Below are positions 10,629-60,097 of a stretch of DNA of 64,000 nt, piece after piece. This DNA comes from Amphiscolops sp. MND2022. Its lineage: Eukaryota. The notes beneath the pieces were generated by a model, which did no database searches, was not told the DNA's origin, and saw only the letters and a list, made by a program, of their open reading frames with translations. The stretch covers positions 54,808,001-54,872,000 of the forward strand of contig OZ076418.1 of assembly GCA_964187785.1 (NCBI GenBank), in the 5' to 3' direction. The translations under genes were made by a program, and so were the position numbers. Position 1 is the stretch's first letter. Each line of letters opens with the position of its first letter.

Positions 10629-10644
10629 AGTAGTATAGGGGGTA

Positions 10645-32527: not shown

Positions 32528-33327
32528 TTCACCCAAAAGATTCGACATCCATATGGAGTCTTCGTTTATCTGATGATGAAGCGCGCCACTCGGTTCATAT
32601 TTTTTGCTTTTTCGATTTTCGAGTACTGTAAATTGACACTTGGAAGTCCTTTTGCTATTTTTGAGCCTTGGATATGGCTCCGAATTGCGCCGGTACCGGC
32701 TTGTTTCTCTTTTGAACGTCTTTAGGCGATTAGGAAGAATTGAAATAGGCCTGATTCCAGAGCATATCAATATTAAAGTAAGTTGCAGAAAAACACATTC
32801 TGCTCATTTTGATATCGAGTATAACAATGTAACGACAACTCTTTCGCATTTTTGAATATCATTAACCACTAATTAACCTCTCATCCAACACCCGACTGAC
32901 GACGACTTCTCCAATCACGTGGGTAACTTTCATTTTTTAACACTTTCCTGCCTTCTTGACTCCTTCCGTTCAACCGTGCACGTCTAGATCAGAGGAAATT
33001 CAACACAGATTTGCACAAAGCCAAGACCCTCCGAGGTTAGCCCATGTTAAAGTAGAATGGCCTCCATTTGCCCGATGTGCTCACACTCTTACTACTTGTA
33101 GGCAACGTCGACCCAATTATGTTTTGTCTATAATCAATTTCAATACATGGAGGGCCGACCTTCATACAACCGGTCTTGCTCTCAGGTATACTACGAACCA
33201 AATTGTTGGTTTTTTCAAACATTTCGAGCTTGTTTAACATTTCGCCAAAAAAGCTATATGGACACAATGAGCCGGAGGTGTAGTTAGAAATGTTCAATAC
33301 GATAGTTTTCATTGAGTATTACATTTG
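32528..33327. repeat. 'X' segment closing the large module (second copy 40768-41559 plus 60098-60108)
   Basis: The two copies are near-identical, with ORF shadows 32495/40735, 32956/41196 and 33037/41277. No recognisable product. Confidence 0.9.
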
Positions 33328-34431
33328 AGCTCATAGACGCATTTCGCCCGGACAAGAGTTGGTCTATAGTTATAACGAAACTTTGCGCTTCGATTAGATT
33401 AGCTTCGCTCGCCCCTTCAAGTTCAGGACTTCAAGTGACTAGGCTACGTAGGTTGAGTGTTTAGGCTCAAGGTGAAAAAAGAAAGTGGAGCAACTGTATT
33501 TTCAGCATCCAAAACCAATGGTTCGTAGGCATCGCCTCGTGTTGGTTTTGATGAGTGCAGTACACTCACCAAAAAATATAAAAAAGAGTTGATGCAAGAG
33601 CAACTTCAATAACTCTAGTCAATAACTCGTAGGCTTCGCCTCGTGTTGACTGGGATGGATGTGGTTTTCCTATTCGTCTCGCAAAAACGAAAATAAGCAC
33701 ACAAATGAAACGGGCTGAGAAACCCACAAAAAAACAAAAAAAGTTGAAGCAAGTGTAAATTCACCCATCTAGCCAGCAGTTCGTGGGCTTCGTCTAGTGT
33801 TGGCTTAGATGGATGTGTTTCTCTTGTTAGGCTCACAAAAAAACCAAAAAGGGGGGGTCTAGACAACTCCAATTAAGAAAACTTCAAAATATGTTGAAAA
33901 GGTTAATGGGTTGACAAAAGACCAATGCATGACAACTCTTGAGTAGCAGCAAAACTTTTGAGTTGCTGCATGGCATGCAGAGTATCTTTGCCAAACTACA
34001 AAAAATATTGAGAAATTACAAAACCATTCTGCCCAAAATAAAAAATTAAATGACATTAGATTAGATTAGAACTTAGAAAAAAGTGAAAAAGTAGGAGTCG
34101 GTCCAAATGCATCTGAATCATCTGTAGCCAATAGTTCGTAGGCTTCGCCTCGTGTTGGCTAGGTTGGTTTTGAAGCGCTTGTTCCACTTCAAAAAATACG
34201 AAAAATTGAATAAAACAAAAAATCTGAAAAACTCCAAAATCCAAAAATAGGAAAAGAAAGAGTCGGTGCAACTGCATCTTATTCATCTGAAGCCAGTGGT
34301 TTGTAGGCTTCGCCTCGTGTTGGCTTGGATGGCTGTGATGCTCTTGTCCACTGGCAAAAAAACGAAAAAATCCAAAATGAAAAATCGAACAAAAATGCAA
34401 ATCCAAAAACTTTTTTTTGGGGCCCAGATAG

Positions 34432-41559: not shown

Positions 41560-43575
41560 TGTTTGTGAAGTGCTCTATTGTCTTTTGACTTATTAAGATT
41601 TTTGATGTACGAGTTTATTCAAGAAAAGAAATATAAGTCTCAATTCACTTTCAATTTACTTTCTAAAGTAATTATGCGAGTCCGATCAAGAATAATTATA
41701 AGCCTCAATTATAGTCTAATTCGTGAACTCTTAGTTCACTTTTCTTCTATTTTCTTGTTTGAAAACTAAAAGTAATCTCGTACTTAAAATTTTCGCGACT
41801 GTGCCTTCCTACACTTCAACAAAAGCTGTCTCAGGTGTGAGTTCGGATGGAAGGACTTTATTTCTACGACCCGGGAGAAGAGTGTGTTTTGGTTCAGAAA
41901 TATGTAAATTAAATCTGTTTTGGTTTATATTAAAGTTGTAATAAATGTCACTCATACAAAAGCAAAGTGCACAGATCAGCATGAATAGAAAGAAAATAAT
42001 TAAATCAAATCTAAAATCTATCTTTGAATAATACGAGTTAAGTTAGTTAGAAAGAAAGTAAGTTATTAAGTTGTTCTTGTGTTTTACCAGATCAAGAGGT
42101 GAAGCCTCTTTATAAGATGCAGCGATAGCTTGCAAGGTGTTTATAGTCCACTAATTGTCACGGACTGAAAAGAGAGCTACTTGCTTCTCTTGATTAAAGA
42201 ACAACAGATTGTTGTACTGGTTTTATAGAGTGTGCTATACAGCTACTCTTTGTCTCAGATTGAGAACTGTTCGACTTGAAGAGTCAAACAAAAACTAAGT
42301 TATTTAAGTCTCTTATAACCCAGCTAAAGCTGTGGTTCTTGGTTTAGAGTCAGTATATCTACCAGACTTTGGTTTAGAGTCTACTATAAAGCAGAGACTA
42401 TTCAATCTTTGTTAAACAAAGACGGTATGATAGCTTCTGTTCGAAGTCAAAAGTCAATTAGAACTCCAACGTAAGAGAAGGTTTGCTTTAACGATGAAAG
42501 CAGATTTTTGTTTTGTTTTAGATTGAAAATATTATAAGACTAAGACTTAGCTTGCCTTTACTTGAAGGCAGATTAGAAAATAGTTAAAGACTTTAATTGC
42601 TTCAATATGAAAGCAGAGTTGAAAAGCTTAAGACTTAATTTGTTTTGGCTCGAAAAATAAATCAAGATAAAATTGCTTCGCTTTGAAAGCGGATTGAAAA
42701 TCGTCTAAGACAAGTTTGCTTTAACAAGAAAGCAGGCTTGACAAAATATTCTAAGTTAAAATTGCTTTGCTTTGAAAGCAGGCTGAAAATCGTCAAACAT
42801 AAAATTGCTTTAACGAGAAAGCAGGCTTGACAAAATATTCTAAGTTAAAGTTGCTTTGATTTGAAAGCAGAGTGAAAATCGTCTAAGTTAAGACTGAGCC
42901 AAGACTTGTAAAAATTTAAGAGTTGCTGTTTAAAGTTTAAGTTAAGAAAAAGAAAAGACTTAGACAAAAAAAACACTAAGACAAAATAAGTTAAAGTTAA
43001 AGCTGAGAAAATATCTTAGAAAAATGAAAGCTCCAAAAGAAAATTGAAATGGTTTAACTAACAGTTACTGCGCCGCGCTGATGAAGGGGATTGAACCCAA
43101 GAAGAAAGATTGAGAAGTAGGAGTGTTCGGATTGATCGATTTTGTATTATTCCAAAAGAAGAGCTCTGAGAGGTGAAAATTTCGTCTGCTTTTATACTAA
43201 ATTTGACCGCTTCGTCAACCAATAAAATTCAATCACAGTTGTGATTGGCTGACGAGCATGACGTCATATGACGTCAAGTCATATGACTATACAAACGAAA
43301 GTGTTTTGTATGTGTTATTCGCAGGCATAGTGTCCACGACAAAATGATGTCATTTGACGTCATGATCAAATAAAGAATGTGTGCAGCGTCGCTGAACAAA
43401 GCGAGTGAACACGTTCGAGCGTGTTCAAAATTCAGAGCTGAGCGAGAAATTAATGAAGATAAACAGCGCAAGTTACAAAAGATAAAATTACATGTTACAA
43501 GTTTTAGAGTTTTATTCTTTTTGGATTTTGACGGTAAGTTTCTTTCTTTTTGTTTGCCATAAGTCGCACACGACA
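41560..43575 (-). repeat. 3' LTR (2016 bp)
   Basis: Direct repeat of 58085-60097 with only about half a dozen differences seen by eye. The minus strand reads TGTCGTGTGCG...CTTCACAAACA. Confidence 0.97.
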
Positions 43576-43590
43576 TCTCACCCGGGTTTC
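43576..43590 (-). other. Putative polypurine-tract position (atypical: GAAACCCGGGTGAGA)
   Basis: It abuts the TG start of the 3' LTR but is only partly purine-rich. Confidence 0.4.
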
Positions 43591-43633
43591 AAGATTGGAG
43601 AAATTGTAACTGGGGTACACAGGTTGTTTATGC

Positions 43634-44621
43634 TCACTTTGATTCTTCCAGGTTAACTTCGATGAACATCGTGTCATTCAGGATGAATGGGGAGTTGCTT
43701 TTGAAAAGTTGGCTGTGTGGGAAAGGGGATGATGAAGAAGGGGAAACATATGCTCGGGTTTCCATAGCTTGTACAAGGTCGTACAAAACAGGCTGAGTTT
43801 TTGTGGTCTTTTGGATCTATTGTTTTTGTTCAAGTATCAGTAGTCTCACTCAAATTTATCACATTGATTCGAAATATTAGTTTGAAAGGCCAAGGAAGAA
43901 TTGGGTCGAACTCACCAGGAAGGATGGTAATAACTAATGAAGCGCTTTCTCCAGTGGCAGGAGAGCATCCGTAAGGATAAAGCTTCATATGAAAACGGTA
44001 CCCGTGAGTTGATGTATAAAATGGAGGGCTCTGAAAATTGCAGGGTAATTTGGGGTGAGGGTCGATACCCTTTTGCAATTCTAGTTCAGCAGCCTTTGCG
44101 TTATCAAACATAAGGCTGAAGGAGCAAATTCTCCAGATTAGTTTTTTGTCTCTTCCGCAATCAATACTGTGAATACGGTCATAGAGGTCCATTATTAGGC
44201 ATTTGAAGGGTTTCAATTCATCAAGTCGTCTTTGTGTATCTGTTGATTCGGGTTCGGTTGGCGAAGGGGTATGAAGAGGAGTATTTACAGGTTGTTCAAC
44301 AGTAGGTGTTATTGTCTTCTTTTGAAGATTTTGGACGACAATTTGGAGTTGTTGAATAGTTCTGTCCTGTTGTCTTCGTAGGTTCTTTTCGTGCTCTAGT
44401 TGTTCGGACAGATTTGCAACTAGTAATTGCGTTGCGTGCAGGTATTGAGCGGTTTTGAGATTGCTGAGTGGAAACTTGCTGACGAGCATTTTCATCTGGG
44501 CGAGGTCGTTGTCGGTGCATGAAGGTAGGCTGGAATTTGTTATTTGATTTCGTATTGTTGTTATCTCATTTTCTACAGCAGCTAGTCTAAGAGTGGATTC
44601 TTCTAATAATTGTTTTTCCAT
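43634..44621 (-). pseudogene. TRAF-like protein (coiled coil + MATH/TRAF-C domain), with a nonsense codon and a frameshift near the C-terminus
   Basis: ORF 43830..44621 has heptad-rich N-terminal stretches, then LIWRI, SPPFYTSTHGYRFHMKLYPYG, SASLVITILPGEFDPILPWPF. Past TGA 43830-43832 the frame continues TKTIDPKDHKNSACFVRP...CFPFFI. A shifted frame gives the final strand FILNDTMFIEVNLEESK*. Confidence 0.85.
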
Positions 44622-44623
44622 TT

Positions 44624-45085
44624 TCAGATGAAGGCAGAGATAGCCCGTAGGGGTACTGATAATCTCTGATGTTTAAGAGTAGTATTTTCAATAGTAAATT
44701 CTTGTCTTTTTGAGTCCCAGAAGATAATTCTCCACTGATTGACTTCTTCTTTGAGAGTATAGTTGAGATTGTAATGAAATCTGGGATTTCTGGTTATCGA
44801 GTATTTTTGAGCGGCTTCTTCACTTCTTTTTTGTTTTTCTAAAGCTTGTTTCAATGAATATTGTGTTTTCTTCTTTTTAATACTACCGTTAAAGACAAAT
44901 GTATTAAGATTATTTGGAGGTGTAACAGTGGCGTCTAAGATTGTTTGACTGAGTGGTCGTTGAGGAATAGGAGATTCACATGAAGTGATGTCAAACATAG
45001 GAAAATCGAGTATGTCCTTCTCAGTTAGAGTTTCCTTTGAAAGAAGAAGTTCCAGATCTGATGAAAGAGAGGTGTGGTCGGTCAT
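44624..45085 (-). CDS. Unknown 153-aa accessory ORF
   Basis: Open frame lying 26 nt after the env stop and ending 2 nt before the TRAF-like ATG. Confidence 0.6.
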   Translation of the reverse strand: MTDHTSLSSDLELLLSKETLTEKDILDFPMFDITSCESPIPQRPLSQTILDATVTPPNNLNTFVFNGSIKKKKTQYSLKQALEKQKRSEEAAQKYSITRNPRFHYNLNYTLKEEVNQWRIIFWDSKRQEFTIENTTLKHQRLSVPLRAISAFI

Positions 45086-45111: not shown

Positions 45112-47247
45112 TTAAATTGGTGATATTGTGTCTAAACGATTAGTTGCTGGCAGACGATTTATGACAGGGTAGATATGTTCAGAAGCATCTTGATTGTCTG
45201 TACTGAATGTTGTCATCGGAATATCTTTTGTAGAAGGATTGAACATTGAATGGAAAATTGAAACCATAAAAAGATTGTAAGTTGCAGATAGTAGAATTTT
45301 ACCGAATCCAACAGACGCTCCAGTAAGTCGGTGTATTTCAAAGGCTCTGACAATAGTTACTGTCACATCGATAATTAATTTTATGAAAAGGAAAACTGCA
45401 AACCAAATTCCACATTTTTCTAGCCAATATCCAATTGTACCAAATGTTTGTCTAAATTTGCTTTCAAAGTAACCAGGAGATATCATGTTATCAACAAAGA
45501 AATCCATTTTTGGTGCGTAGTATGTGTATCCTTCAGGTCCTTTCTTTGAGTGTGAAGGGACAATGAGTTTTCTTGTGAATTTTTGTAAAGCATTCTTCGA
45601 TGCAGAACTCATGAGGATGTTGTCCCAAAATTCGGTTAGCTGGCCTTTCGTGTACATTCCAGCGTTGATTGATTGGGGAAACTGATCCCTTGTGAATGGT
45701 GCTACATCTTTTGGCGAGAAGATAGCAGGTCTATCTCTATGTGTGATTTGCGGCGTTAGTGAGAACCAAGAGTTCTTATCGTCCATGTCCATTTGAAAAA
45801 GGTTCTTTATGTGGTCCGAACAGTTCTGAGGCATCGCATCAGGTAAAGTTTGCCTCGTGATGGGATCTACAAATTTGATTTGTCCTTTGTAAAATATGGG
45901 TATCTTATCGTAGCACTCGTTCATCGTGTGAAGAGGTGATCTGACTAGAGGACAAGAGTAAAGCCATGCAAGGCTTCCATCAGTTTCTAAGAACATTGAT
46001 CTGTTTCCAGTCAACATATATCCAGCTAGTCTTGAGTTCTCAAGTGAAAGCATCAGAATAGTAAGTATGTGTGATCGTTCTTGTTCACACTGATTTTTCA
46101 AAAGATGAAGTTCTGAGGCTTTGAGTGCTCTGGAGCTCTCAAAGAAAAGATAGTCCAGTTTAGTTCCTTGTTGTAATTCGTAGTCCATATTCAACCATGT
46201 TCCATAATATGGGTCTGAATGGTAGTTACTAGCAAACCAGAGTTTACTATGGCCTGGGTCATCTCTTTCTTGATCATTAGGGGAATAGTGCATCATGTGA
46301 ACTCTGTCCTCTTGTTGGATCATATTTCGTCCAGTTTTCATGTCAAATCCACCATAAAGGATAGCAACAAACAAAGATTCATAGGTTGTGGGATATACAT
46401 CTGATGGTTTATTACAAAGTTTTTGTGGTCTGTTTTTGACTTCAAAGAGATATTTGTTTTCTGAATTGTTCTTGCTAACAATATAATACTGGTCGTCATT
46501 TTTGATCATGTTTACGTACTCTTCTTTCAGTACGGTGAGAATACAGTTGTCTGGATTATCCCATATATAAGCATATGGGTCGAGTGAGGTGCTATCACAT
46601 CCGAGTTCATCTAGTTTGCAGGGTAGAGGTTGTCCATTTCTGTTCATTATAGTTCCGTCTCTGAGTTTGACGTTCAGAGTAATATCTTGGATGTGAGTCT
46701 CGAAGGTATCTTTTTCAATCCATTCAAAACCATCACATTCATTTTTGAATGTGTCGTCTGCATCGCCATTCCATCTAAGATGTTGTTCAATTACTCCTTT
46801 TTTCATTGTAATCTGATGATTTAGTAGAGTTATTGGTGATCCTTCAGCTGCGAGTCTGCATTGTGCAGGCGATAAATCGAGATATGAGGTAATAGTCTTT
46901 TGTTTGATATCGATGCTGGAGTGGTCGTGCATTCCACAATAGAATCTGTTCCTTTGATGTTTGACACTGCATATTGTAGCGTTAATTTCTGTTCGAAAAT
47001 GTTTTGTGTACATCTTGACTTTGGCATGGCTCATGTCTATGTTCTCAGGAGCCACGTTACAAGGTTTGACTTGGTTGAGAGAGTAGAGATTGTTTTCTGA
47101 CATTTCACTGCAATCGTAATGTGAGACTGTGACTGTAGGTGCGATATCATCCAGTATGGGCTGCTTTTGGTCGGCGTAGATGAATTTTATTGAAAACATC
47201 AAAATAAAAATAACCAAATATTTACAGTATATCTTTTCACTATCCAT
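45112..47247 (-). CDS. env: Envelope glycoprotein, chuvirus-G / herpes-gB-like (class III fusogen)
   Basis: N-terminal signal peptide, Cys-rich ectodomain with HYDC...LYSLNQVKPC...ICSVKHQRNRFYCGMHDH, and C-terminal hydrophobic segments (WFAVFLFIKLIIDVTV...). This pattern matches my recollection of chuvirus-like glycoproteins. Confidence 0.8.
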   Translation of the reverse strand: MDSEKIYCKYLVIFILMFSIKFIYADQKQPILDDIAPTVTVSHYDCSEMSENNLYSLNQVKPCNVAPENIDMSHAKVKMYTKHFRTEINATICSVKHQRNRFYCGMHDHSSIDIKQKTITSYLDLSPAQCRLAAEGSPITLLNHQITMKKGVIEQHLRWNGDADDTFKNECDGFEWIEKDTFETHIQDITLNVKLRDGTIMNRNGQPLPCKLDELGCDSTSLDPYAYIWDNPDNCILTVLKEEYVNMIKNDDQYYIVSKNNSENKYLFEVKNRPQKLCNKPSDVYPTTYESLFVAILYGGFDMKTGRNMIQQEDRVHMMHYSPNDQERDDPGHSKLWFASNYHSDPYYGTWLNMDYELQQGTKLDYLFFESSRALKASELHLLKNQCEQERSHILTILMLSLENSRLAGYMLTGNRSMFLETDGSLAWLYSCPLVRSPLHTMNECYDKIPIFYKGQIKFVDPITRQTLPDAMPQNCSDHIKNLFQMDMDDKNSWFSLTPQITHRDRPAIFSPKDVAPFTRDQFPQSINAGMYTKGQLTEFWDNILMSSASKNALQKFTRKLIVPSHSKKGPEGYTYYAPKMDFFVDNMISPGYFESKFRQTFGTIGYWLEKCGIWFAVFLFIKLIIDVTVTIVRAFEIHRLTGASVGFGKILLSATYNLFMVSIFHSMFNPSTKDIPMTTFSTDNQDASEHIYPVINRLPATNRLDTISPI

Positions 47248-47528
47248 TATCTACTAATGAAAACGGTACTCCGAAAATACTATAAAAGGTTTAAGAAAAG
47301 AAAGGTAGACTTGCTAACCTTGAAAAGGAAGCTTTGCTTTCGATGAAGCAGTGAGAAGAGCAGCTTTGCTTTCAATAGAGCAGCGAGAAATCTGTAGCAC
47401 TTGGCAATACAGAATGTTTGTTCAAATCGAACTGAAAAGAGAGCAAGAATGAATTCTGCTTGAAGTTGACAACTTAGTCAAAGATGTGAAATGGATGATA
47501 GTCCTTTTCGTGAAAGGCTTTGATGAAT

Positions 47529-48255
47529 ACACGTCTAAAAACCGTGTCTTCTCGCTTAAGAAAATATGATCTGTTTTAAACAGACAAAAAGAGCGAGGAG
47601 TTATTTATAGACGGCAGAGTTTGACACTTAGGTCGTTACCGTCTCTTCTTGCAAGGTAAAAGGAAAAGTAGCACACGTCTAAAAACCGTGTCTTCCTGCT
47701 AAAAGGAACGTGATCTCTTTGAGACCAAGAAGAAAAGAAAAATAGGAGCAGGGAGTTATTTATAGACGGCAGAGATTGATACTGAGATCGTTACCGTCTC
47801 TTCTTGCCTGAGAAAGAGAGAGTTAAGAAGGTTAAGTAAAGGCAAGGCTACACGTCCAAAAAACCGTGTCTTCCCACCATAGAAAAAGTCATCTAAGTGG
47901 CCAGCTTAGATCAAAGAGAGAAATAAAGGTAGGGAGTTATTTATACACGGCAGAGTTTGATACGAACCGTCGTTCGATCGTTACCGTGTCTTTGTCAGAC
48001 TTTTGTGACAAATTGTAATATACGTCTATACACCGTATCTTCGTTGAGCTTTGCAACGGAGTTATTTATACACGGCAGAGTTTGATACTGAGATCGTTAC
48101 CGTGTCTTCTTGCAAGGATAAAATTGAATACGCACGTCCAAAACCCGTGCCTTCCTGCTAGAGAGAAAAGTGATCTATTTTAGATCGAATAAAAATGAGA
48201 GCAGGGAGTTGTTTATACACGGCAGAGTTTGATACAAAGATCGTTACCGTGTCTT
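47529..48255. ncRNA. Five-unit tandem structured element (~150-bp units, multiple covarying stems) upstream of env
   Basis: Each unit has hairpin A, a CTTC.../...GGAG stem, TTATTTAT, and hairpin B with a conserved internal loop CAGAGTTT/GTTA. Compensatory base changes occur between units. Confidence 0.6.
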
Positions 48256-48340: not shown

Positions 48341-48739
48341 TTATTTTTGCAAGCTGAGGATTTCTTTTATTTTTGCAATGTAGAATTCTTCAAAGGAGCC
48401 AAGTCCCGTTTCCATAAAAGAAGACAATTCTTCTAGGAGTGGTAGATCAAAGAGTTGTATATTCGTCTCAGGGCTATCGATGTAGACTGATAAGGCGATG
48501 GCTAATTCAGCAAAGAATTTTGTTTTCTCTTCTACTCTTATGAAGACTTTGGTTTTGGGCTTTAATACTGTATAGCCTCTAGCTGTAAGCCAAAATTGGT
48601 ATCGGTATGACCACTGCAGTTCCTTCACAATTAATAGTTCAGGGCTTTTGATGGGGTCGACTAAATTATAGATTGATACTGGAAGTTTTAGTTTAACTGT
48701 TTCAATTGCGTCTTCTTCCCAGAGGTTGTGGATGAACAT
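48341..48739 (-). CDS. Unknown 132-aa accessory ORF (paralogue of 48879..49199)
   Basis: Open frame that aligns by eye to the 106-aa ORF (LQWSY/LKWSF; ELAIALSVYIDSPETNIQLFDLPLLEEL / QLSEALDNYAEEPESHITQFQLHILGEL). Confidence 0.7.
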   Translation of the reverse strand: MFIHNLWEEDAIETVKLKLPVSIYNLVDPIKSPELLIVKELQWSYRYQFWLTARGYTVLKPKTKVFIRVEEKTKFFAELAIALSVYIDSPETNIQLFDLPLLEELSSFMETGLGSFEEFYIAKIKEILSLQK

Positions 48740-48878
48740 TGATTTTTATTGATTTCTCCGTTTTCTATTTTGAGGGAGTTGATTTCTTGCTAATTGGGGG
48801 AGTAGTTGTGGAAGGATGCGTCTGGTCCAAATTTGTCTGACGATTTCTTCTCGTAGACTGAAGCTCATTCAATTTTAT

Positions 48879-49199
48879 TTATGCTGCTGTTGTATCGGCT
48901 AACTCTCCAAGGATATGGAGTTGAAATTGGGTGATGTGTGATTCAGGTTCTTCAGCGTAATTATCCAAAGCCTCAGATAGTTGTTCTCGGAGGAATCTAT
49001 TGTTAGCGATTTCTAAGGTGGAGACTTTGCTTTTGTTTTCTACAGGGTGTACTGTTATCAGAATGAAACTGGGTTTGATAAAGGACCACTTGAGTTTGAT
49101 GATATTGAAGTTTTCAGTGATGCCTGAAGGAGTAGTTATTTTAAAGGGGCAGTTGAATTCTACTTCATCAATTTCGCCTTCATCAAAAAATATGTCCAT
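48879..49199 (-). CDS. Unknown 106-aa accessory ORF
   Basis: Open frame whose ATG directly follows the TAA of the upstream ORF. Paralogous to the 132-aa ORF. Confidence 0.7.
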   Translation of the reverse strand: MDIFFDEGEIDEVEFNCPFKITTPSGITENFNIIKLKWSFIKPSFILITVHPVENKSKVSTLEIANNRFLREQLSEALDNYAEEPESHITQFQLHILGELADTTAA

Positions 49200-49415
49200 T
49201 TAAATACTATTGTCAGCATTCAGGAATGCATCCGTTGGTGCGTTTCCAAAGAATAGAAAGATGTGATGGAAATAGTCCCAGTATATAGACGTTGGGGGAA
49301 CAGTGATAATTCTCTTCTGTTTTGTTTGGTGGTGCTGAAGGGAAACGTGAAAAGTCAAATTTCGGAAATCTTGTCTAACTATTCTGTAGAAGTCGTTGTT
49401 TATCTTGATGTACAT
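49200..49415 (-). CDS. Unknown 71-aa accessory ORF
   Basis: Open frame with a TAAATG stop-start junction to the next ORF. Confidence 0.5.
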   Translation of the reverse strand: MYIKINNDFYRIVRQDFRNLTFHVSLQHHQTKQKRIITVPPTSIYWDYFHHIFLFFGNAPTDAFLNADNSI

Positions 49416-50962
49416 TTGCTAGATTCGTCAGTTGATTGTGTAGTTGTAGGCTATGCTAAAATACAAACAAAAACATGCGCATCGTTAAAACGATCGCTTT
49501 AAAGTTAGACAGAACATTTCTTTTGCTCAAAACAGAGGAGCTAGAGGTCAAAAAATGATTCGTGATATTAATTGAAGAATGAGACGCTTGGTGACTAAAA
49601 TGAGATTACAAGTTACAAATAAAGTCATAAATTACTTTTGAATACAACAAAGGAGTTTTGCGGCGAGATAATTAAATTGTTCTATTAAGGAGGAGCTGAA
49701 GTAGTTGGCGGCTAAAATGAAAGATAGTTATGGAGCTGAAAAGATAATAGACAAATACGTGAACAAAGACTTTAAATTACTTTTTATGTGAGATAAAAGA
49801 ATACATGAACAAAGCAATTATTTAATGAGTGGAGTTGTATGGTGGCTGAAAACAGAAGATGGTTGAGAACAAAAGTGATGCGTGAACAAAAGTTAAATTG
49901 AAGAAAGAAGTTGATGAGATAATAAAAGTTTGAACAAAGCATTATTTCATTTATTTATCTAGCTAAAGCAGGTTTGTCAAAAGATTTTATTTTATTATTA
50001 CGAACTAAAGAACAATAAGCTTCACAAAGCAAGTTATTTAAAACAGTAAAATGATGAGTTGTAACAGATGGCTAGGAGATATTCACAGAGGATTTTTGTT
50101 TTTGTAGTTTCTTCTTTGTTTTCTTCATTTTATCTGCTAATTTCTGGGCTGTTAGGTCGGGTGTTTTTCGGGTGTTATTTTCTGATTCTTGATTTTTTCT
50201 GACTATACAACTACGAAGTAGTCCCACCGCCATTGAACGAAAAATGAAAGTTTGAAATTTTTTGTTTGGTGTGTGCGCTCGCAAATTTTTGGGTTGGGTA
50301 GCCGGGAAATTTTTTGAGGTAGGGGGTGCTGAAAATGAAATTTAAATCCCTTTGTTTTTCAGAACGTTTTGATAATGAGTGCTCTTAATGACTTGGATTT
50401 CCCTATTCTTGATGTCAGTGGGGAAGTCTGGCAAACATTTTTCGGCGTTGAGGAACTGACTGCTCTAAAGGCTCTAGTTGAGGAACTTCAGCAGCCCATG
50501 CTAGGGATGGGAAGTATCTATCCCTTGGATGTAGGGCCTCAATTAAGTGCTGCTTTACAAATAGTTACGGAGTCAGAAGACGTGAGTTGTTGTTTATTTC
50601 ATTATTTATAATAGTTTTCATCTTCTGTTTCTGTAGTAGGAATGCAGTGTCCCTTTACAATTCTTTCTGTTTCAGTGGATATCCGTCTTATCGAATGGTG
50701 GGTTTCGGAGCAGACTTGCCATCAGAGAGCTTGAGAATATTCAATATTCTTATTCTATGTTGACTGCCCTCGCCAAAAGGGAGATCGTTATTCGATGGAA
50801 TATGGGGGACTATGTTCCCGTCATTAATTTTCTGCGAAAGCCGTTATTTTTAAGCGGATAGTTTCTTGTATATAGTTTTGTGTGCTGATGTGTATTTACT
50901 TTTTTGTTTATATTTTTATTCGGATCCTCTCCTGTAATACATTGTATAACTAAATATAATGT

Positions 50963-53900
50963 TTAGTCTTTGTATCCTTTTCTTTCTAGATCCCGTAGTG
51001 AGCTGTAAGGATGAGAGCGCTTGTATTTTGCTTTTACTTTTGACGTGAGATCAGCAACTTTATTTTTCTTTTTTGGCGATGAAGAAGTAGATTGCTCAGC
51101 TTCATGAAATTGCGGCGTTGTCCTCAAAATAGTAGGAACACGAATAGGCATAGGAGTCATAGGAAGTATAGGAGTTTGTAGCGGCGGCAATGGTGAAATT
51201 GTTAAATTTTGATAATTATGATCATCATTAGTAGACGTAGCAGGAGATTGAATTCCTGAGTCAGCAGTAGGTGAAAGAGTAGCGTGGTTTTTGTTCATTT
51301 CTTGATAATTAGTATTTTCTTGTAGCGGCGATATGATGAAAGGCATTACATCTAGGGAACATTTTTGTTGATTTGAATTGTAGTCATTTATTTGCGACTG
51401 CACTAGATGTTTGTAGAAATCACTATCTTTTGTTATAGGCGGCGTATAGTTAGTGATTAGAGGAGGGAGTCTTTCCTCTTTAGGAAAATATTCAATTAGG
51501 TGATTGCGATGAGTAACTTTAACGTTTTCTGGGTTAGCGTCCTCTTGAATTTCGTACGTCGTGTTTGTTATTTGTTTAGTTACTGTAAAAGGGCCAACAC
51601 GTAATTGTTTTAACTTTTGTGATCTGCTTAAGTCGGCAGTGTGATTCTCTAAGAATACTTTTTGTCCGATGTTGATAGGTCGTCCGAGTTTGAATCGGTT
51701 TCTGTATTCGTGTGCTTTAGAAGTAATTTGGCGGCATCGTTGATAGGTTGACGAATAGATTCGTTTGAAGTCGTTTTCACGAGCAATGAGTTCGTCTGAG
51801 AGTTGTGGCCTGAGTAATCGATCCAGGGATTTGTTCGGTAGTTGGTTTTCGCTGTGTGTATGGGGTTTCAATCCTTCACAGTAGTCGGATCTGCATTGTT
51901 TGTTCTTGTCTCGTATTAGTCCAAGTTTTAACGTCATAGGAACTTGTGGTTTTGTCCCGAACACTATTTCATATGGGGTAAGTCCCGTAGTGTAGTTTAC
52001 ACTTGTGTTATGAGCGAATGCAAATTTCGGTGCTAGTTTTGACCAATTATTACCTGACTCGTTAGTGAAGTTTCTCCAATATCGTGTAAGGTGCTGATTT
52101 TGTACTTCTACTTTTCCGTTTGTCCATGGTGAGTAAGTTGTACGTGGTGCGAGAGTTATTCCGAATTCTTTAGTCCAGTTGATGAAGTCACTGTTGATAA
52201 ATGCTGTCCCGTTATCGTGTATTATCTTCTGAGGGATTCCATAGGATGTGATCCATTTTTCTAATGCAGTAATAGTAGCTTGTGCGCTAGTATCTTTTAC
52301 TGGGTAGACACCAATGAATCTTGAAAATGCGTCAACTACTACTAAGCAATGGTTGTTAGAATTGCTACTAGGCCTGAGCGGGCCTTTATGGTCTATATGA
52401 ATGGTTTTGAAAGGTGTAGTTTCAAGTTCTCCCCATTGTTCCAAGGGAGCTTCGTGTAAGTCATGACGTTTTGACTTATTGGTTTGACATTCGATACAGT
52501 CTTCTATGAGATAAACTATCCATTTGTATCGTCCTGGCCAGAAGAAATATTGTCTAATATTTTCAAAGGTCTTAAATATTCCAGGATGACCACTGTGGCT
52601 GTGTGTGTGAGCAAGTTTGAAAAGTGGTAGAAACAATGATAGAGGAACACATATTTTCATCTCAGTTTTGCTTGTTTCCTGAACTGTCTCGTTGTAGCAT
52701 AGGAGGTTGGTTTCTTCGTCTATAAAGAGTTGCTCAAATCGGTTGAAGTATGACAGTAGTGCTTTAGATTGATTGATATCATGTGTTTTTGTTGGTCGTT
52801 TATCTGATTTCTTTATCCAACTGCGTACTTTTTGTAGTACTGGATCATTGAGTTGTTCTTCAACTAATGTAGTTACATCTAGATCAGCAGTTTTTGCAAA
52901 ATCACTCAATTTTTGTATCAATTCCTTTGTGTCTACCTCTGGGTGTAATTCTGAGTCTATGTTGGATTTTAGAATTGGTTTTCGTGACTGGTTTCTTCGG
53001 ATTGATTCGTTTGCAAGTGAGAAATCGTGTAAGAATTCGGAGTCCTTCTGATCGAAGTTTAGTTCTGCTATTTCGTTGTCGCTGTTGTAGCCGTCATCTT
53101 GTTGTTCTTCAATTTCGCTGTAGGTTTCCTCTTCGATGGTGTAATTTGTGAAGTAGGGGCAAACATCTGAGCAAAGTCGTTTATATTGGTTTATTGTCTT
53201 GCCGAGTTTAAAGCAATCGGTCATGTCTTGCATTGTAGCTAAGACTTCATTGTCTTCTATGTAATCTTCGACATATTGTTCGTCACCATCATTCTTTAGG
53301 TGTAGGATTTGTCTATCGTTTCCATGTTGGCAGATTATCGGAAAGAAGTCGTTGCATGAGATATCTTGGCTATCTTCGTGTTTGATAGTGTAATGCATCT
53401 GGTCTCCCTTTTCATCATAGAATGATATCTCTTTCGGTATTTCTTTATGCTGTAGCTGTAATTTGTTGATGTCGGACAGTGTTACGTTTCGGCTAAGTAT
53501 ATCTGGGAAAGCTAAGTTTGAACCTGGCGTCCAGATTATCTTCAAGTTGTGAAATTTTGTTATTATAACTTGGTACTTGAAGAACCGATGAGAAAGTTGT
53601 CCTTTTCGTCCCCATAAGTAGAGAATGGGTTTGTGGTCACAGTATAGGTAGATTGGAAATGGTGAGCCAATAATGTAGTGCTCATAGGTTTGTAGTGCAG
53701 ATACAATACCACAAAGTTCTCGGTGGAGGGTAGACATTTTTTGTTCTGCTTTATCAAAGACACGAGAGTTGAAAGAGACTATTCGTTTTCCTTCTGGAAA
53801 TTGTTGAACTAAGATACATCCAGTCCCTACATTCGAAGAGTCAACGTGAATATGAAAAGGGTATTCAGTTGAAGGAACTGCTAAAATAGTATCTTCTGAG

Positions 53901-56422
53901 ATTCTTTCTTTTATCTGGTTGAAAAGTGTTTCGTGTTGTTCAGTCCATTTGAAAGGTGTAGTGTCTTTTATCAATTCATAGAATGGTTGACTATCGACGT
54001 GTAGATTCTTGATATAGCAGCTATAAAAACCTAAACATCCAAGTACTTTCATTACGTCTCGTTTGCATTCCGGTGACTTCAAATTCTTCAAGTCTTGTAC
54101 TCTTTTAGCTACTGGTTGAATTCCGTCTTGAGATATAACATGTCCCAGGAATTTTACTTTTCTCAAGAAGAAGTGTGTCTTGTCAGGTGCGGCTTTTAGT
54201 CCGCCTTTTCGTAGGAGTTGGTGATACTCGTGTATGATGGTGAACATCTCGCCTTTGGTTTGCGATTGGAGAAGACTATCATCAAGATAGGTGATTGCTT
54301 GTTTCTTCTTTACAAGTGGTTCGAAGTTAATCGCCATCATTCGGCTGAACCATTGAGGGAGTCCACAAAGGCCATAGAATCCAACTTGATAGGTGTATTG
54401 TTTTCCACCTACGATGAAACTAGTTAGTTTCTGAGTTTCTTCACTAAGAGGTACTTGGTGATATGCACAAGAAAGATCACTTGCTGTAAAATACTTGCCG
54501 TTGATTCTTGTCATAATCATTTGGACTGGCTCGAGTGGCCAAGAGTAGTTTGTTAAGTCAGTGATAGAATTTAGATATCTAGCGTCAATAACAAGTTTAA
54601 CATAGTCAGCTTTAGGTAAGAGAATGATTGGATTTACGAATAGTGAACCAAGCTCGTCGTCGTCTCCCATTTCTCTAATGATGCCCGTTTCTTGTAGTTG
54701 TCCAAGAAGTTTTTCAAGCTTATCTTTCAGATGGAGTGGAACTTTGCTAGGACGTTGTTTGCGGAGTTCTGAGTTTGGTTTTAGAGTGACGTGAAACTTC
54801 TGTTTGGTTTGACCAATATCGAATTTGTGTTGTGAGTATACATCTCTGGAGTCAATGATCATATCTATTAACATAACAAGTTCTTCGTCTTCTAAATCGG
54901 TGTATTGAAAATCGAATTGCTTGATGAAGTCTTTTATTTCTTGAGGTTGATATTGAAGGTAGTAGTCAATAAGATCATTGTTTAACTCTTTAGGTCTCAG
55001 TATTGGAAATTGTTCCTTACACGGAGGCTGACATGATTTTGAATCCTTGGTAAAGTCTGTTTCTAGTTCGTCCTTTTCATCCGTCCATTCGTTCGTATAG
55101 TTGTCAATTTTATCTTCTATAGAGTTCGTAGACTTGTTAGCTATTTTACAGTCTAGTTCATTCCTGGAGATGATCTGAATGAGAATGCCAGAGTCAGTGA
55201 AAGTGTCTTTCAGTATTTTCAGTACTTCATTCCAAGAGAGCTTGTCAAGTCCACAACCAATCTTTGGCATTGTTATTATATGAACATTGTTGAGGAGAGC
55301 GTGACCTCTCATGTTCTCGAGTGATATCCGAAGGTTCTCAAGAGTAGGTTTTTCAAAGAACTTGTTCTTTGTGACATGGTTGTATATGAGTCTATTTGCA
55401 TCATTATCCCAGAAGGGAATGACTGAACCAACAAAAGCTTTTGACTTGTAACAATATTCTTGTAGTCCACTGATGTGGTTGGTGATAGTTTCAGCAAATC
55501 CTTTACTCATTTTTGCATCTGCTGATATGCAATGAGCAATAGCTGCTTGGCTTTCAAAGATTGTATCATCGTTCCCATTAATGATACGTACACCATCTCT
55601 GAAGTCTGATTCGAGTGGTAGTGTCGAGTGTAGTAAAAAGCATTCGTTATACTGATCATTCTCAGATAGTATACAGTTAACCATTTTAACACAATCTTTT
55701 ATTTGGTACTTTGGTCGTTCGTAGTCTAGTATGTCTAATGCTGAGTATCCCAAAATTCCTTTGTCAAGAGTTATTTGATGATTCTTGTTGTTCTCCATTA
55801 GAATTGGTAGATATTGTTCTGACTGTGTGCAAAGAACATTTACAAAGTCTAGTCCTGAGTTAGTTACTTTTTGATGAGGGATGAAGGTTGTTCCTGGTGC
55901 AAAGTTTATTTGTTCATCTTCTGGACGGTATTTGTAGACACGAGATGTCTTAGCATCAACATGTATCTGATGTGGCACTCGTATTGCTCTGATTAGTGAC
56001 AAATAGGGGTAAGGTTTAGTAGCACAAAGACTGCCATAGCAAATTGTATTAGGAGTGTCTTTGAGTTCTAATGCAGGAATATCGAAATGGAGTTTAGAGA
56101 TATACTTTCTACAGAATTCAATACCCAACAAAATTGCTGTTTTGGTTTCTGTTATCCAAAGTTGTAGTTGAAAACAGTGTTCTCCATCAAAGTCAAAACT
56201 GAAGTTTAGTGTTGTGTGACCCAACATAGGTATTTCTTCTCCAGTGTATGTTCTAGTCTTTTGTTTGCTTCTTATTACTGTGATTGGTTGAAGAAACTGA
56301 GAAATTTCATAAAAAGTGCGATAATTAATGATAGAGCAAGCTGCTCCAGTATCGACCATGAATTCGATTTCAAGTCCACTATCTTTTTTAGAGTCTCCGG
56401 TGGGAAAATAGAAAACGTTCAT
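50963..56422 (-). CDS. pol: Pol: aspartic protease - spacer - macrodomain - RT - RNase H - integrase (GPF)
   Basis: Motifs in order: MVDTGA (PR); AHCISAD...MPKIGCGLD (macro); YLDD (RT); HVDSS...YCDHKP (RH); HTHSHSGH...CIEC, IHIDH, VVDAFSR, HDNG and KVE (IN); VGPF. The frame is open upstream to the slippery site at 56476-56482. Confidence 0.97.
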   Translation of the reverse strand: MNVFYFPTGDSKKDSGLEIEFMVDTGAACSIINYRTFYEISQFLQPITVIRSKQKTRTYTGEEIPMLGHTTLNFSFDFDGEHCFQLQLWITETKTAILLGIEFCRKYISKLHFDIPALELKDTPNTICYGSLCATKPYPYLSLIRAIRVPHQIHVDAKTSRVYKYRPEDEQINFAPGTTFIPHQKVTNSGLDFVNVLCTQSEQYLPILMENNKNHQITLDKGILGYSALDILDYERPKYQIKDCVKMVNCILSENDQYNECFLLHSTLPLESDFRDGVRIINGNDDTIFESQAAIAHCISADAKMSKGFAETITNHISGLQEYCYKSKAFVGSVIPFWDNDANRLIYNHVTKNKFFEKPTLENLRISLENMRGHALLNNVHIITMPKIGCGLDKLSWNEVLKILKDTFTDSGILIQIISRNELDCKIANKSTNSIEDKIDNYTNEWTDEKDELETDFTKDSKSCQPPCKEQFPILRPKELNNDLIDYYLQYQPQEIKDFIKQFDFQYTDLEDEELVMLIDMIIDSRDVYSQHKFDIGQTKQKFHVTLKPNSELRKQRPSKVPLHLKDKLEKLLGQLQETGIIREMGDDDELGSLFVNPIILLPKADYVKLVIDARYLNSITDLTNYSWPLEPVQMIMTRINGKYFTASDLSCAYHQVPLSEETQKLTSFIVGGKQYTYQVGFYGLCGLPQWFSRMMAINFEPLVKKKQAITYLDDSLLQSQTKGEMFTIIHEYHQLLRKGGLKAAPDKTHFFLRKVKFLGHVISQDGIQPVAKRVQDLKNLKSPECKRDVMKVLGCLGFYSCYIKNLHVDSQPFYELIKDTTPFKWTEQHETLFNQIKERISEDTILAVPSTEYPFHIHVDSSNVGTGCILVQQFPEGKRIVSFNSRVFDKAEQKMSTLHRELCGIVSALQTYEHYIIGSPFPIYLYCDHKPILYLWGRKGQLSHRFFKYQVIITKFHNLKIIWTPGSNLAFPDILSRNVTLSDINKLQLQHKEIPKEISFYDEKGDQMHYTIKHEDSQDISCNDFFPIICQHGNDRQILHLKNDGDEQYVEDYIEDNEVLATMQDMTDCFKLGKTINQYKRLCSDVCPYFTNYTIEEETYSEIEEQQDDGYNSDNEIAELNFDQKDSEFLHDFSLANESIRRNQSRKPILKSNIDSELHPEVDTKELIQKLSDFAKTADLDVTTLVEEQLNDPVLQKVRSWIKKSDKRPTKTHDINQSKALLSYFNRFEQLFIDEETNLLCYNETVQETSKTEMKICVPLSLFLPLFKLAHTHSHSGHPGIFKTFENIRQYFFWPGRYKWIVYLIEDCIECQTNKSKRHDLHEAPLEQWGELETTPFKTIHIDHKGPLRPSSNSNNHCLVVVDAFSRFIGVYPVKDTSAQATITALEKWITSYGIPQKIIHDNGTAFINSDFINWTKEFGITLAPRTTYSPWTNGKVEVQNQHLTRYWRNFTNESGNNWSKLAPKFAFAHNTSVNYTTGLTPYEIVFGTKPQVPMTLKLGLIRDKNKQCRSDYCEGLKPHTHSENQLPNKSLDRLLRPQLSDELIARENDFKRIYSSTYQRCRQITSKAHEYRNRFKLGRPINIGQKVFLENHTADLSRSQKLKQLRVGPFTVTKQITNTTYEIQEDANPENVKVTHRNHLIEYFPKEERLPPLITNYTPPITKDSDFYKHLVQSQINDYNSNQQKCSLDVMPFIISPLQENTNYQEMNKNHATLSPTADSGIQSPATSTNDDHNYQNLTISPLPPLQTPILPMTPMPIRVPTILRTTPQFHEAEQSTSSSPKKKNKVADLTSKVKAKYKRSHPYSSLRDLERKGYKD

Positions 56423-56469
56423 ATGAAAACGTGATTTGAAGTTACTTTCTTCATCTGGTTGCGGAGACC

Positions 56470-57762
56470 TTAGTAGTTTAAAGCAAAGTAGTTGGAGATT
56501 GAGTTTACCATCTCTTGAGAGTCGTCATCAATGAATTGCACATTGTTAGAGAGAGCATTAGAATTGTTCTGCGGGAAATTTCGGTTATATTGAAAATTGG
56601 AGTTGTTATTCTGCCTTGCAGGAAAGTTGAAGTTATTTTGCCCAGTTCGCTGATTCTGTCCTTGATTAGAGTTACTCTGGTTGTTATGATTCTGGTTGTT
56701 GAAATTTTGGTTTCTATTATACGGCTGACTAAAGTTGTTATTATACCTTTGCGAAGAGTTGGAGTTGTGGTAGTTTTGCGATCCGAAGTTCGGTCCCTTT
56801 CTCTTGTTGTAGTCATTGGTGAAGGTTGGCTTTTTCTGCTGGTTATCACGATTGTATTGACGTTTTCGTTCATCATCGAAGGCTTTAGTTCTACAATATT
56901 GCAGTGTATGCCCGTTTCGCCTACAGTAGTGACAGAAGCGAGTTGCATTCTGTCTGGACTTATTATTCACATCGTTGGTTCGTGTGTTGGCTTGATTTAA
57001 AGCATTCACTTGTTGTTCTTTCAGAAGTGTTGAAAGTTCTCTGACTTGTTTCTCTAACGAATCTAGTTTGGAGTTCTGCTCGTTAGTTGGATTTGGTACG
57101 AAATCTGAGCTTACTGTATAGACCAAGTCCTTGTTGGCTATGTGGTCTTTGAAGTTATCCCAAGTTGTGTTAGGATGTTCTATCAGGTATTCGTGAGCTT
57201 TTCTTCTAAGTCCTGAAGGGGTTAGTCCCTTGGTTGTGAAGTCAATATACTTTTGATTTCTCAAGTTTTGTTGAGCGCCTCTTTCATCTTGATTAGCTCC
57301 GGCATCGATCGGCCATCCTTTGTCAACTGCTTGTTTGACTCGGTGATAGAAATTTTTGATTAGTTCTTCTTTTCCTCTGACACAGTTTTCAGCAGTTATT
57401 CTGTGTCTGTATTTATCTCTGTCATCTGAGAAGCGAGTTATGAAGGCTGTTCTGACTTGAATCCAAGTAGGTAGTGGGTTACCTACGTTAAATCCTTCGT
57501 ACCACTCTGCGGCTGGTCCGCGGAGGAGAGACGAGAAAAGTGCTTTCTTTCTGAAGAGGTATCTAGCTGCTTCGCCAGCATCATTCGGTGGTGATCCGAG
57601 AGAGAAGTCAATTTTATTTTCTACTGTTAGAAGAAATGATTTAACATCTTGGTCTGGGTCGTCCCCAGAGAACTTGTCCAATGCCAGGTCAGGAAAAGAG
57701 ACTGCGTTCTGAGCCATTCTGAGGGTTGTGATAGTTTGGTTCTTCTTGTGATTGAGTTTCAT
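56470..57762 (-). CDS. gag: Gag with C-terminal CCHC knuckle and Asn/Gln-rich tail
   Basis: Retrotransposon-gag-like LDKFSG...LLRGPAAEWY, knuckle CHYCRRNGHTLQYC (C-x2-C-x4-H-x4-C), and position between the PBS and pol. Confidence 0.95.
   Translation of the reverse strand: MKLNHKKNQTITTLRMAQNAVSFPDLALDKFSGDDPDQDVKSFLLTVENKIDFSLGSPPNDAGEAARYLFRKKALFSSLLRGPAAEWYEGFNVGNPLPTWIQVRTAFITRFSDDRDKYRHRITAENCVRGKEELIKNFYHRVKQAVDKGWPIDAGANQDERGAQQNLRNQKYIDFTTKGLTPSGLRRKAHEYLIEHPNTTWDNFKDHIANKDLVYTVSSDFVPNPTNEQNSKLDSLEKQVRELSTLLKEQQVNALNQANTRTNDVNNKSRQNATRFCHYCRRNGHTLQYCRTKAFDDERKRQYNRDNQQKKPTFTNDYNKRKGPNFGSQNYHNSNSSQRYNNNFSQPYNRNQNFNNQNHNNQSNSNQGQNQRTGQNNFNFPARQNNNSNFQYNRNFPQNNSNALSNNVQFIDDDSQEMVNSISNYFALNY
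56476..56482 (-). promoter_or_regulatory. -1 ribosomal frameshift slippery heptamer T TTA AAC
   Basis: An X XXY YYZ heptamer in the gag frame, one codon before TAA. The -1 frame (FKLLRSPQPDEESNFKSRFHMNVF) is open into pol. Confidence 0.85.
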
Positions 57763-58068
57763 TCAGTTAAGGTATGATTGAATAATATTTAGCGATGGGG
57801 TCTTCAAGGTGTATATTGAAAATGAGTGCACAGAGACAAGTGACAAGGGTGATGAATACAAGAAAGATTCCAACAAAGAGTAGGTAGTCCGGGTCTTCAG
57901 GAGATATCACTAATCTCATAGACCTCAGTTATGGTGGAGATGGGTTGATATCGTCCAGATAGTTAGTTTTATGACAAGTGTGACAAAGCTAGTGACAAGG
58001 TGAAAGAAAACCAAAAACCAGATTAGTGAATAGTCCGGGTCTTCAAAAGTTATCATGAAATGGGTTTG

Positions 58069-58085
58069 CCTCACTGGTCGCACCA
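58069..58085 (-). other. Primer-binding site TGGTGCGACCAGTGAGG
   Basis: Starts with TGG at the 5' LTR end. The priming tRNA could not be identified by eye. Confidence 0.8.
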
Positions 58086-60097
58086 GTTTGTGAAGTGCTC
58101 TATTGTCTTTTGACTTATTAAGATTTTTGATGTACGAGTTTATTCAAGAAAAGAAATATAAGTCTCAATTCACTTTCAATTTACTTTCTAAAGTAATTAT
58201 GCGAGTCCGATCAAGAATAATTATAAGCCTCAATTATAGTCTAATTCGTGAACTCTTAGTTCACTTTTCTTCTATTTTCTTGTTTGAAAACTAAAAGTAA
58301 TCTCGTACTTAAAATTTTCGCGACTGTGCCTTCCTACACTTCAACAAAAGCTGTCTCAGGTGTGAGTTCGGATGGAAGGACTTTATTTCTACGACCCGGG
58401 AGAAGAGTGTGTTTTGGTTCAGAAATATGTAAATTAAATCTGTTTTGGTTTATATTAAAGTTGTAATAAATGTCACTCATACAAAAGCAAAGTGCACAGA
58501 TCAGCATGAATAGAAAGAAAATAATTAAATCAAATCTAAAATCTATCTTTGAATAATACGAGTTAAGTTAGTTAGAAAGAAAGTAAGTTATTAAGTTGTT
58601 CTTGTGTTTTACCAGATCAAGAGGTGAAGCCTCTTTATAAGATGCAGCGATAGCTTGCAAGGTGTTTATAGTCCACTAATTGTCACGGACTGAAAAGAGC
58701 TACTTGCTTCTCTTGATTAAAGAACAACAGATTGTTGTACTGGTTTTATAGAGTGTGCTATACAGCTACTCTTTGTCTCAGATTGAGAACTGTTCGACTT
58801 GAAGAGTCAAACAAAAACTAAGTTATTTAAGTCTCTTATAACCCAGCTAAAGCTGTGGTTCTTGGTTTAGAGTCAGTATATCTACCAGACTTTGGTTTAG
58901 AGTCTACTATAAAGCAGAGACTATTCAATCTTTGTTAAACAAAGACGGTATGATAGCTTCTGTTCGAAGTCAAAAGTCAATTAGAACTCCAACGTAAGAG
59001 AAGGTTTGCTTTAACGATGAAAGCAGATTTTTGTTTTGTTTTAGATTGAAAATATTATAAGACTAAGACTTAGCTTGCCTTTACTTGAAGGCAGATTAGA
59101 AAATAGTTAAAGACTTTAATTGCTTCAATATGAAAGCAGAGTTGAAAAGCTTAAGACTTAATTTGTTTTGGCTCGAAAAATAAACTAAGATAAAATTGCT
59201 TCGCTTTGAAAGCGGATTGAAAATCGTCTAAGACAAGTTTGCTTTAACAAGAAAGCAGGCTTGACAAAATATTCTAAGTTAAAATTGCTTTGCTTTGAAA
59301 GCAGGCTGAAAATCGTCAAACATAAAATTGCTTTAACGAGAAAGCAGGCTTGACAAAATATTCTAAGTTAAAGTTGCTTTGATTTGAAAGCAGAGTGAAA
59401 ATCGTCTAAGTTAAGACTGAGCCAAGACTTGTAAAAATTTAAGAGTTGCTGTTTAAAGTTTAAGTTAAGAAAAAGAAAAGACTTAGACAAAAAAACACTA
59501 AGACAAAATAAGTTAAAGTTAAAGCTGAGAAAATATCTTAGAAAAATGAAAGCTCCAAAAGAAAATTGAAATGGTTTAACTAACAGTTACTGCGCCGCGC
59601 TGATGAAGGGGATTGAACCCAAGAAGAAAGATTGAGAAGTAGGAGTGTTCGGATTGATCGATTTTGTATTATTCCAAAAGAAGAGCTCTGAGAGGTGAAA
59701 ATTTCGTCTGCTTTTATACTAAATTTGACCGCTTCGTCAACCAATAAAATTCAATCACAGTTGTGATTGGCTGACGAGCATGACGTCATATGACGTCAAG
59801 TCATATGACTATACAAACGAAAGTGTTTTGTATGTGTTATTCGCAGGCATAGTGTCCACGACAAAATGATGTCATTTGACGTCATGATCAAATAAGGAAT
59901 GTGTGCAGCGTCGCTGAACAAAGCGAGTGAACACGTTCGAGCGTGTTCAAAATTCAGAGCTGAGCGAGAAATTAATAAAGATAAACAGCGCAAGTTACAA
60001 AAGATAAAATTACATGTTACAAGTTTTAGAGTTTTATTCTTTTTGGATTTTGACGGTAAGTTTCTTTCTTTTTGTTTGCCATAAGTCGCACACGACA
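58085..60097 (-). repeat. 5' LTR (about 2013 bp)
   Basis: Direct repeat of 41560-43575, ending ...GTCGCACACGACA at 60097 on the plus strand. Confidence 0.97.
59712..59884 (-). promoter_or_regulatory. Probable U3 promoter: TATA box, CCAAT boxes and three TGACGTCA (CRE) palindromes (same in the 3' LTR at 43190-43362)
   Basis: Minus-strand TATAAAA at 59712-59718, CCAAT/ATTGG about 30-55 bp upstream, and TGACGTCA at 59781, 59791 and 59877. Confidence 0.6.

Follow-up and report, generated by a model that had tools for sequence, protein, structure and literature searches.

Why does an LTR retrotransposon carry, next to its 3' LTR, a gene that looks like a host signalling adaptor, and what would such a protein do for the element? 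The question arises from a 64,000-nucleotide stretch of the Amphiscolops sp. MND2022 genome (contig OZ076418.1, positions 54,808,001 to 54,872,000), referred to here as the window. Its minus strand contains an 18.5-kb element with the order gag, pol, three small ORFs, env, orfX and, as the last ORF, a TRAF-like gene (Table 1). A previous sequence-only reading described this gene as a coiled coil plus MATH domain without RING, free of introns, broken by a TGA and a frameshift, and recently damaged in this copy. It proposed that a host TRAF had been retro-captured and that the protein, truncated by loss of its RING, acts as a dominant-negative decoy in TNFR/TLR-NF-kB signalling. The anatomy, the capture and the recent damage are all borne out by the data presented below, including both lesions. 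The decoy mechanism and its target are not.

Structure of the element

Table 1. Features of the TRAF-bearing element (window coordinates).
Feature	Position	Strand	Remarks
5' LTR	58089..60097	minus	4 substitutions in 2013 aligned bases vs 3' LTR
Primer-binding site	58068..58085	minus	putative; TGG-starting, 3 nt inside 5' LTR
gag	56470..57762	minus	open frame, 430 aa; PF03732 E=2.5e-6
pol	50963..56524	minus	open frame, 1853 aa; protease, weak macrodomain match, RT, RNase H, integrase
Three small ORFs	48341..49418	minus	134 / 106 / 72 aa; between pol and env
Degenerate internal repeats	47524..48255	minus	five with TATA-like motif; upstream of env
env	45112..47247	minus	open frame, 712 aa; Monjiviricetes-type fusion glycoprotein, PF24664 E=4e-39
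orfX	44624..45085	minus	~153 aa; stop 2 nt before TRAF ATG
TRAF-like accessory gene	43634..44621	minus	two helical coiled-coil segments, Pro/Thr-rich linker, MATH/TRAF-C; broken copy
Premature stop within MATH	43830..43832	minus	263-aa product without last strands
Frame break (place approximate)	43720..43735, near 43725	minus	private to window copy
Spacer, TRAF stop to 3' LTR	43576..43633	minus	58 nt; ends in purine-rich tract
3' LTR	41564..43575	minus	TG...CA by reading of junctions
Target-site duplication	41560..41563	.	4 bp, one mismatch; partner 60098-60101

The two LTRs of about 2 kb each are 99.65% identical. The measured spacer between the TRAF stop and the 3' LTR agrees with the roughly 60 bp given earlier. 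Its purine-rich tract is conserved in 16 copies of the same family (family A) and has a similar counterpart in three copies of a second family (family B), and would serve as the plus-strand primer site. An empty-site paralog of the insertion is found at ~33317, and one family B copy is flanked by a perfect 4-bp target-site duplication. The element has the LTRs, primer-binding site, short target-site duplication, gag, protease-RT-RNase H-integrase order and fusogen ORF of a Ty3/gypsy element with env. Typed by these features, it is a young Ty3/gypsy-type insertion.

The segment of pol between protease and RT contains a macrodomain-like insert (55160-55597, minus), with a Pfam Macro match at E=0.002, below the cut-off. 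Besides TRAF, the element has four accessory ORFs (48341-49418 and 44624-45085), which are assigned to no family, are all under purifying selection and are all shared with family B; orfX gave no Pfam match. The TATA-like motif of the internal repeats occurs five times against 0.18 expected, for a pattern taken from the same sequence, and the repeats may constitute an internal promoter. The tandem repeats that family B has between pol and its small ORFs look unrelated. In family A, no splice acceptor is evident immediately ahead of the TRAF ATG, and a scan for poly(A) signals was uninformative (91 found, 102 expected).

Tandem units of ~793 bp surround the insertion (window 22300-40350 and 61250-64000), and the element lies in a spacer that is duplicated at 32661-34526. 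In window 1-8000, the tandem units measure ~1030 bp and contain a 148-aa frame apiece; by eye, we take that frame and one of 197 aa (14099-14692) to be SGNH-hydrolase-like. Also by eye, the stretches 18504-20225 (minus), 10486-11079 (minus) and 14841-17738 (plus) hold a P-loop ATPase frame in two copies, similar to the packaging ATPases of Polintons/adintoviruses, along with a frame that may be minor-capsid-like and a non-LTR RT-like frame of 965 aa.

The TRAF gene of the window copy

The window TRAF frame starts with an ATG at 44621 and is closed after 263 aa by the in-frame TGA. The remaining MATH strands continue downstream of it in two frames, up to a final stop at 43634-43636. On its own, the 263-aa piece matches Pfam TRAF-mep_MATH (E=6e-16) and MATH_2 (E=2e-12) and has no Pfam match to RING or zf-TRAF. 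The two short MATH pieces past the premature stop, scanned singly, have no Pfam match. Without its last strands, the truncated product is unlikely to fold.

A protein identical to the 263-aa product (P0186) is encoded in another record, on a contig of 80.7 kb. The presence of the same truncated protein there makes an assembly error unlikely as the source of the stop, though that record may share raw data with this one. Both lesions occur at the window locus only, among 178 loci compared, many of which belong to other families or are the same place repeated. The window copy inserted recently and its TRAF was inactivated afterwards; the remaining large ORFs are open.

Sibling copies, a second family and selection

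Searching the 1.07-Gb genome at the DNA level returned 199 candidates, of which 40 were scored. The full 325-aa TRAF ORF, continuous and without intron, is present in 27 of the 29 best sibling loci (window excluded); as the closest matches, these loci are skewed to young copies. At the protein level, 150 of 527 candidates were scored, and 129 of the 150 are stop-free within the match (frameshifts not counted). Family A contributes at least 150 TRAF matches, spread over the chromosomes and mostly open.

For the analysis of selection, 20 copies were sampled across the identity range with long frames favoured. Sixteen with a stop-free TRAF and at least 88% coverage were kept and four dropped. Values of dN/dS are pooled pairwise Nei-Gojobori estimates with a codon bootstrap; the pairs are non-independent, but the values fall well short of 1. 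Family A TRAF has a dN/dS of 0.13 (CI 0.10-0.17) at a dS of ~0.45 (n=16). The value is lowest in the MATH domain (0.08), intermediate in residues 1-101 with the N-terminal coiled coil (0.16) and highest in the linker (0.39). In comparison, env reaches 0.04 (7 copies), the C-terminal part of pol 0.05 (12 copies), orfX 0.08, and the small ORFs of 134, 106 and 72 aa 0.19, 0.26 and 0.15, respectively. Synonymous variation shows no trough within the TRAF ORF.

The second MATH-bearing repeat, family B, surfaced in a Pfam search. Its gene order is that of the window element, TRAF slot included, in all four loci examined, three of which reach gag and show paired LTRs. Identity to the window element is 65-72% in pol (69%), ~60% in env, 44-49% in orfX and 28-32% in TRAF; the three small ORFs have family B homologs as well. 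We found at least 59 matches to the family B TRAF, which has a shorter N-terminus than that of family A. It is full-length and stop-free in 15/17 copies tested, with a dN/dS of 0.09 (0.06-0.12; 15 copies).

As judged from these codon comparisons, purifying selection on TRAF shows that the gene has a function, without saying which. The two outcomes named beforehand as speaking against a captured gene, disrupted siblings with neutral dN/dS and a local fragment of a host gene, are not what we observe. The TRAF gene is functional at the level of the family and dead in the window copy.

The genes of the same copies differ in dS (TRAF 0.41 versus env 0.20, 7 copies), and between copies L149 and L147 the MATH domain has a dS of 0.03 versus 0.22 for the whole gene. 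The unequal dS points to recombination that exchanges accessory modules among lineages. In another record, an orfX homolog (P0229) and a family B-like TRAF (P0076) each come from a 4136-bp contig. If the equal size means a single contig, this suggests that an env-orfX-TRAF-type cassette exists there too.

Predicted fold and binding groove

The protein of an intact sibling matches PF21355 (E=1e-22) as well as 28 PDB TRAF sequences (best E=5.5e-16), and has no RING or zinc-finger match. Long helices are predicted for residues 54-101 and 127-155, where 8/13 and 6/9 of the heptad a/d positions are hydrophobic. The first helix comes from a single-sequence fold with poor pLDDT (45), of which the helices alone were used. 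Residues 126-325 of a natural sibling, modelled with a 60-row alignment, form a coiled-coil helix and a MATH sandwich with a pLDDT of 94. In Foldseek, this model matches TRAF5, 3, 1 and 2 (TM 0.67-0.76, E ~1e-16). The top viral matches are megalocytivirus TRAFs (TM ~0.7). A search of the phage collection yielded no match, and the ESM Atlas returned generic TRAF clusters only.

Hot spots of the TRAF groove and their numbering are given in the available part of PMC6125299, and were mapped here by alignment. The polar pocket K213-x-Y215, which aligns with TRAF2 R393/Y395, is present in 16/16 copies. The serine finger reads S-A-C in the element, S-A-S in TRAF1, and I-A-C and L-Q-C in the host. The hydrophobic-pocket Phe of the host is replaced by V in family A and by C in family B. 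In these alignments the groove is conserved among copies, yet non-canonical, and because the pocket Phe is replaced, its partners may differ from those of the host protein.

Origin of the gene

A single-copy host gene at C3:90.867M has four exons and three GT-AG introns. Its predicted 493-aa model, read exon by exon from the genome, consists of a short Cys/His remnant, a coiled coil and MATH, with no RING. Aligned with the element TRAF, the model shows 47% identity along 195 aa and 41% along a coiled-coil stretch of 111 aa, and both contain a distinctive motif. The long host-type coiled-coil motif is kept in family A, and the N-terminal Cys/His remnant is missing from the element copy. A host paralog lies at C3:25.70M. 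Scanning upstream of these genes, over 24 kb for one and 16 kb for the other, revealed no RING-like or zinc-finger exon. As the nearest host gene model is also without RING, the element has probably inherited this absence from a host subfamily that was already RING-less.

The host introns lie at codons 267 and 425, and the last intron is common to both host genes and to copies on an inverted-repeat element (see below). The element ORF runs continuously through both host intron positions that it spans, which argues for capture via RNA. On this intron evidence, the element TRAF is a retro-captured host gene, derived from a spliced RNA of the host TRAF subfamily.

A TRAF-domain tree of 51 rows places 32 of them in one clade (support 100/99), which unites families A and B with both host genes, the inverted-repeat copies and unnamed relatives from databases. 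This clade stands apart from the RING-bearing TRAFs and from two other genomic loci, and a 26-row tree repeats the result (100/100). Grouping of A and B as one clade is neither shown nor rejected (p-AU 0.36), and branching within the clade is not resolved. All 12 clade members scanned contain MATH families only; several are partial predictions. P0055-type TRAFs, members of the clade from other records, gave no hit in this genome at E<=1e-45 and have no confirmed locus among the metagenome contigs.

A second multi-copy element type carries the same RING-less TRAF subfamily, with ~27 top matches (e.g. L113:5676-6767, L116:2593-3690, L119, L120 and L122). Here TRAF keeps the last intron, and in 7/9 loci examined it is flanked by inverted repeats, 1.7-3 kb or longer, in a foldback-like arrangement. 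Three extra genomic matches considered as further host genes proved to be copies of this element and were rejected.

Comparison with known systems

The closest precedent is Burro/GYPSM1, a giant Ty3/gypsy element of planarians that carries MATH_TRAF_C along with BIR and BCL2-like domains. In Dugesia tigrina, MATH_TRAF_C forms a separate accessory ORF, and a putative interference with apoptosis or ubiquitination has been proposed (PMC6431247). Like the element described here, Burro is an env-bearing Ty3/gypsy LTR element of high copy number with MATH_TRAF_C. However, its domain lies in or upstream of the ORF1 polyprotein, whereas TRAF is the last ORF after env in our element. Burro has an F-type env between gag and pol instead of a Monjiviricetes-type env. 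It exceeds 30 kb and encodes a giant ORF1 polyprotein with in-frame env, compared with 18.5 kb, separate gag, pol and env, and a weak macrodomain match in pol. BIR, BCL2-like, ankyrin or dUTPase domains of the Burro type were not found in the ten ORFs of the window element scanned. Because its architecture is unlike that of Burro, here compared by description, and because its TRAF groups with the subfamily of its own host, the element most likely acquired its gene in a separate capture.

Among host proteins, mammalian TRAF1 offers the nearest likeness, as a naturally RING-less scaffold of coiled coil and TRAF-C with an altered serine finger. The likeness is one of architecture rather than of demonstrated orthology: the element protein lacks a zinc finger and falls in a separate clade. 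According to the accessible part of PMC4858697, TRAF1 regulates both ways, is mainly anti-apoptotic and acts through other TRAFs. ISKNV ORF111L is likewise a viral capture of a host TRAF, but it belongs to a DNA virus, has a RING, is pro-apoptotic and is 18-19% identical to the element TRAF.

The overall layout resembles that of Ty3/gypsy 'errantiviruses' with gB-type env (PMC13524379) and of rotifer LTR elements (PMC5408684, available part), which combine gag-pol-env and a class III-like fusogen with extra ORFs captured at the 3' end. In the same part of PMC5408684, the rotifer ORF3s are enzymes, unlike the TRAF here. TRAF and MATH are not mentioned in the main texts, as distinct from the supplements, of PMC13524379 and PMC12440569. 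The literature searched contains no description of this element family; repeat databases, most subscription journals and supplements lay outside that search.

Discussion

We propose that the element TRAF is an accessory protein under selection that mimics a TRAF1-like scaffold of the host and damps death or defence signalling, a proposal in which our confidence and our doubt are about equal. Selection and capture are read from the sequences, whereas the trimer and its interactions we infer. A spliced RNA from a lineage-specific, already RING-less TRAF1-like host subfamily would have entered the element, where selection keeps the gene. The protein, whose monomer fold is predicted, would assemble into a TRAF trimer. 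Its retained coiled coil may allow it to join, or compete with, host TRAFs, and its MATH groove may bind partners of host TRAFs. In cells where the element replicates, or which it has entered, TRAF-dependent death or defence signalling would then be damped, which would favour survival. Damping rather than boosting is our judgement, since TRAF1 acts both ways and ORF111L promotes apoptosis.

A more far-reaching version, which we regard as conceivable but doubtful, takes the five selected accessory ORFs as a cassette like that of complex retroviruses. The TRAF mimic would counter a host defence run by the RING-less TRAF subfamily without NF-kB, and this subfamily would be a previously unknown signalling node against transposons or viruses. 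The idea stems from the finding that two element families and an unrelated inverted-repeat element carry the same subfamily.

Alternatively, TRAF could serve the life cycle of the element itself, as a trimeric scaffold that ties Gag, the Env tail or an accessory protein to host ubiquitin or trafficking pathways, with no effect on immunity or death. The tight env-orfX-TRAF cassette kept in both families and the drift of groove residues away from those of the host would suit such a role. We nevertheless find it unlikely. Elements with gB-type env are widespread and, going by the main text of PMC13524379, where TRAF and MATH do not appear, budding in general needs no TRAF. In addition, family A retains the long host-type coiled-coil motif.

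RING-deleted TRAF2 and TRAF6 are dominant-negative. The earlier proposal, that a canonical TRAF lost its RING on capture and so became an inhibitor of TNFR/TLR-NF-kB signalling, builds on the same logic. It can point to the lack of RING and zinc finger in the element protein, to the loss of the Cys/His remnant that the host model still has, and to eight TIR matches and one zf-TRAF locus in the genome. We nonetheless judge it quite improbable, as the element TRAFs cluster away from RING-bearing TRAFs and together with host genes that yielded no RING, and the clade members scanned show MATH families alone. The suggested target is unsupported too, despite the TIR matches. TNFR_c6 yielded one sub-cutoff match among 84 candidates in the genome. 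An exon-by-exon search of the genome for Rel-homology domains returned 0/1 candidates for RHD_DNA_bind and 0/3 for RHD_dimer; having no positive control, it does not show absence.

A mimic could also act as an agonist that adds to the normal signalling of the host subfamily, for example by a growth or death signal that aids spread. The architecture is the same as that of the host gene, and the top viral fold matches are the TRAFs of megalocytiviruses. ISKNV ORF111L binds TRADD and induces caspase-8 apoptosis, although it does so with a RING (both from the available part of PMC3352826), and a germ-line-inherited element would profit little from killing its cell. Such an agonist therefore strikes us as very improbable. 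Least credible by far is that the gene is a neutral passenger or a fragment of a local host gene: the window copy carries two lesions despite its young insertion, but copies of both families are numerous and mostly open across chromosomes, the gene is intronless and within LTRs, its dN/dS is far below 1, and overlapping constraint as the cause of that value is not indicated, synonymous variation having no trough.

The occurrence of MATH_TRAF_C in a Ty3/gypsy element is already known from Burro. New are the 3'-terminal position, the donor subfamily, the selection data and the presence of the same subfamily on an inverted-repeat element. Selected host signalling adaptors have rarely been shown in LTR retrotransposons; for Burro, the sole precedent we found, the annotation gives neither donor nor selection nor function. 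Here, a single genome shows the donor subfamily, the loss of introns and purifying selection in two diverged families. A TRAF expansion is described for planarians (PMC6109357, available part). The more than 200 MATH matches that are mobile-element copies in this genome indicate that apparent TRAF/MATH expansions of invertebrates can have this source. Whether transposons manipulate the death and immune signalling of their hosts, as viruses do, becomes testable with one small protein.
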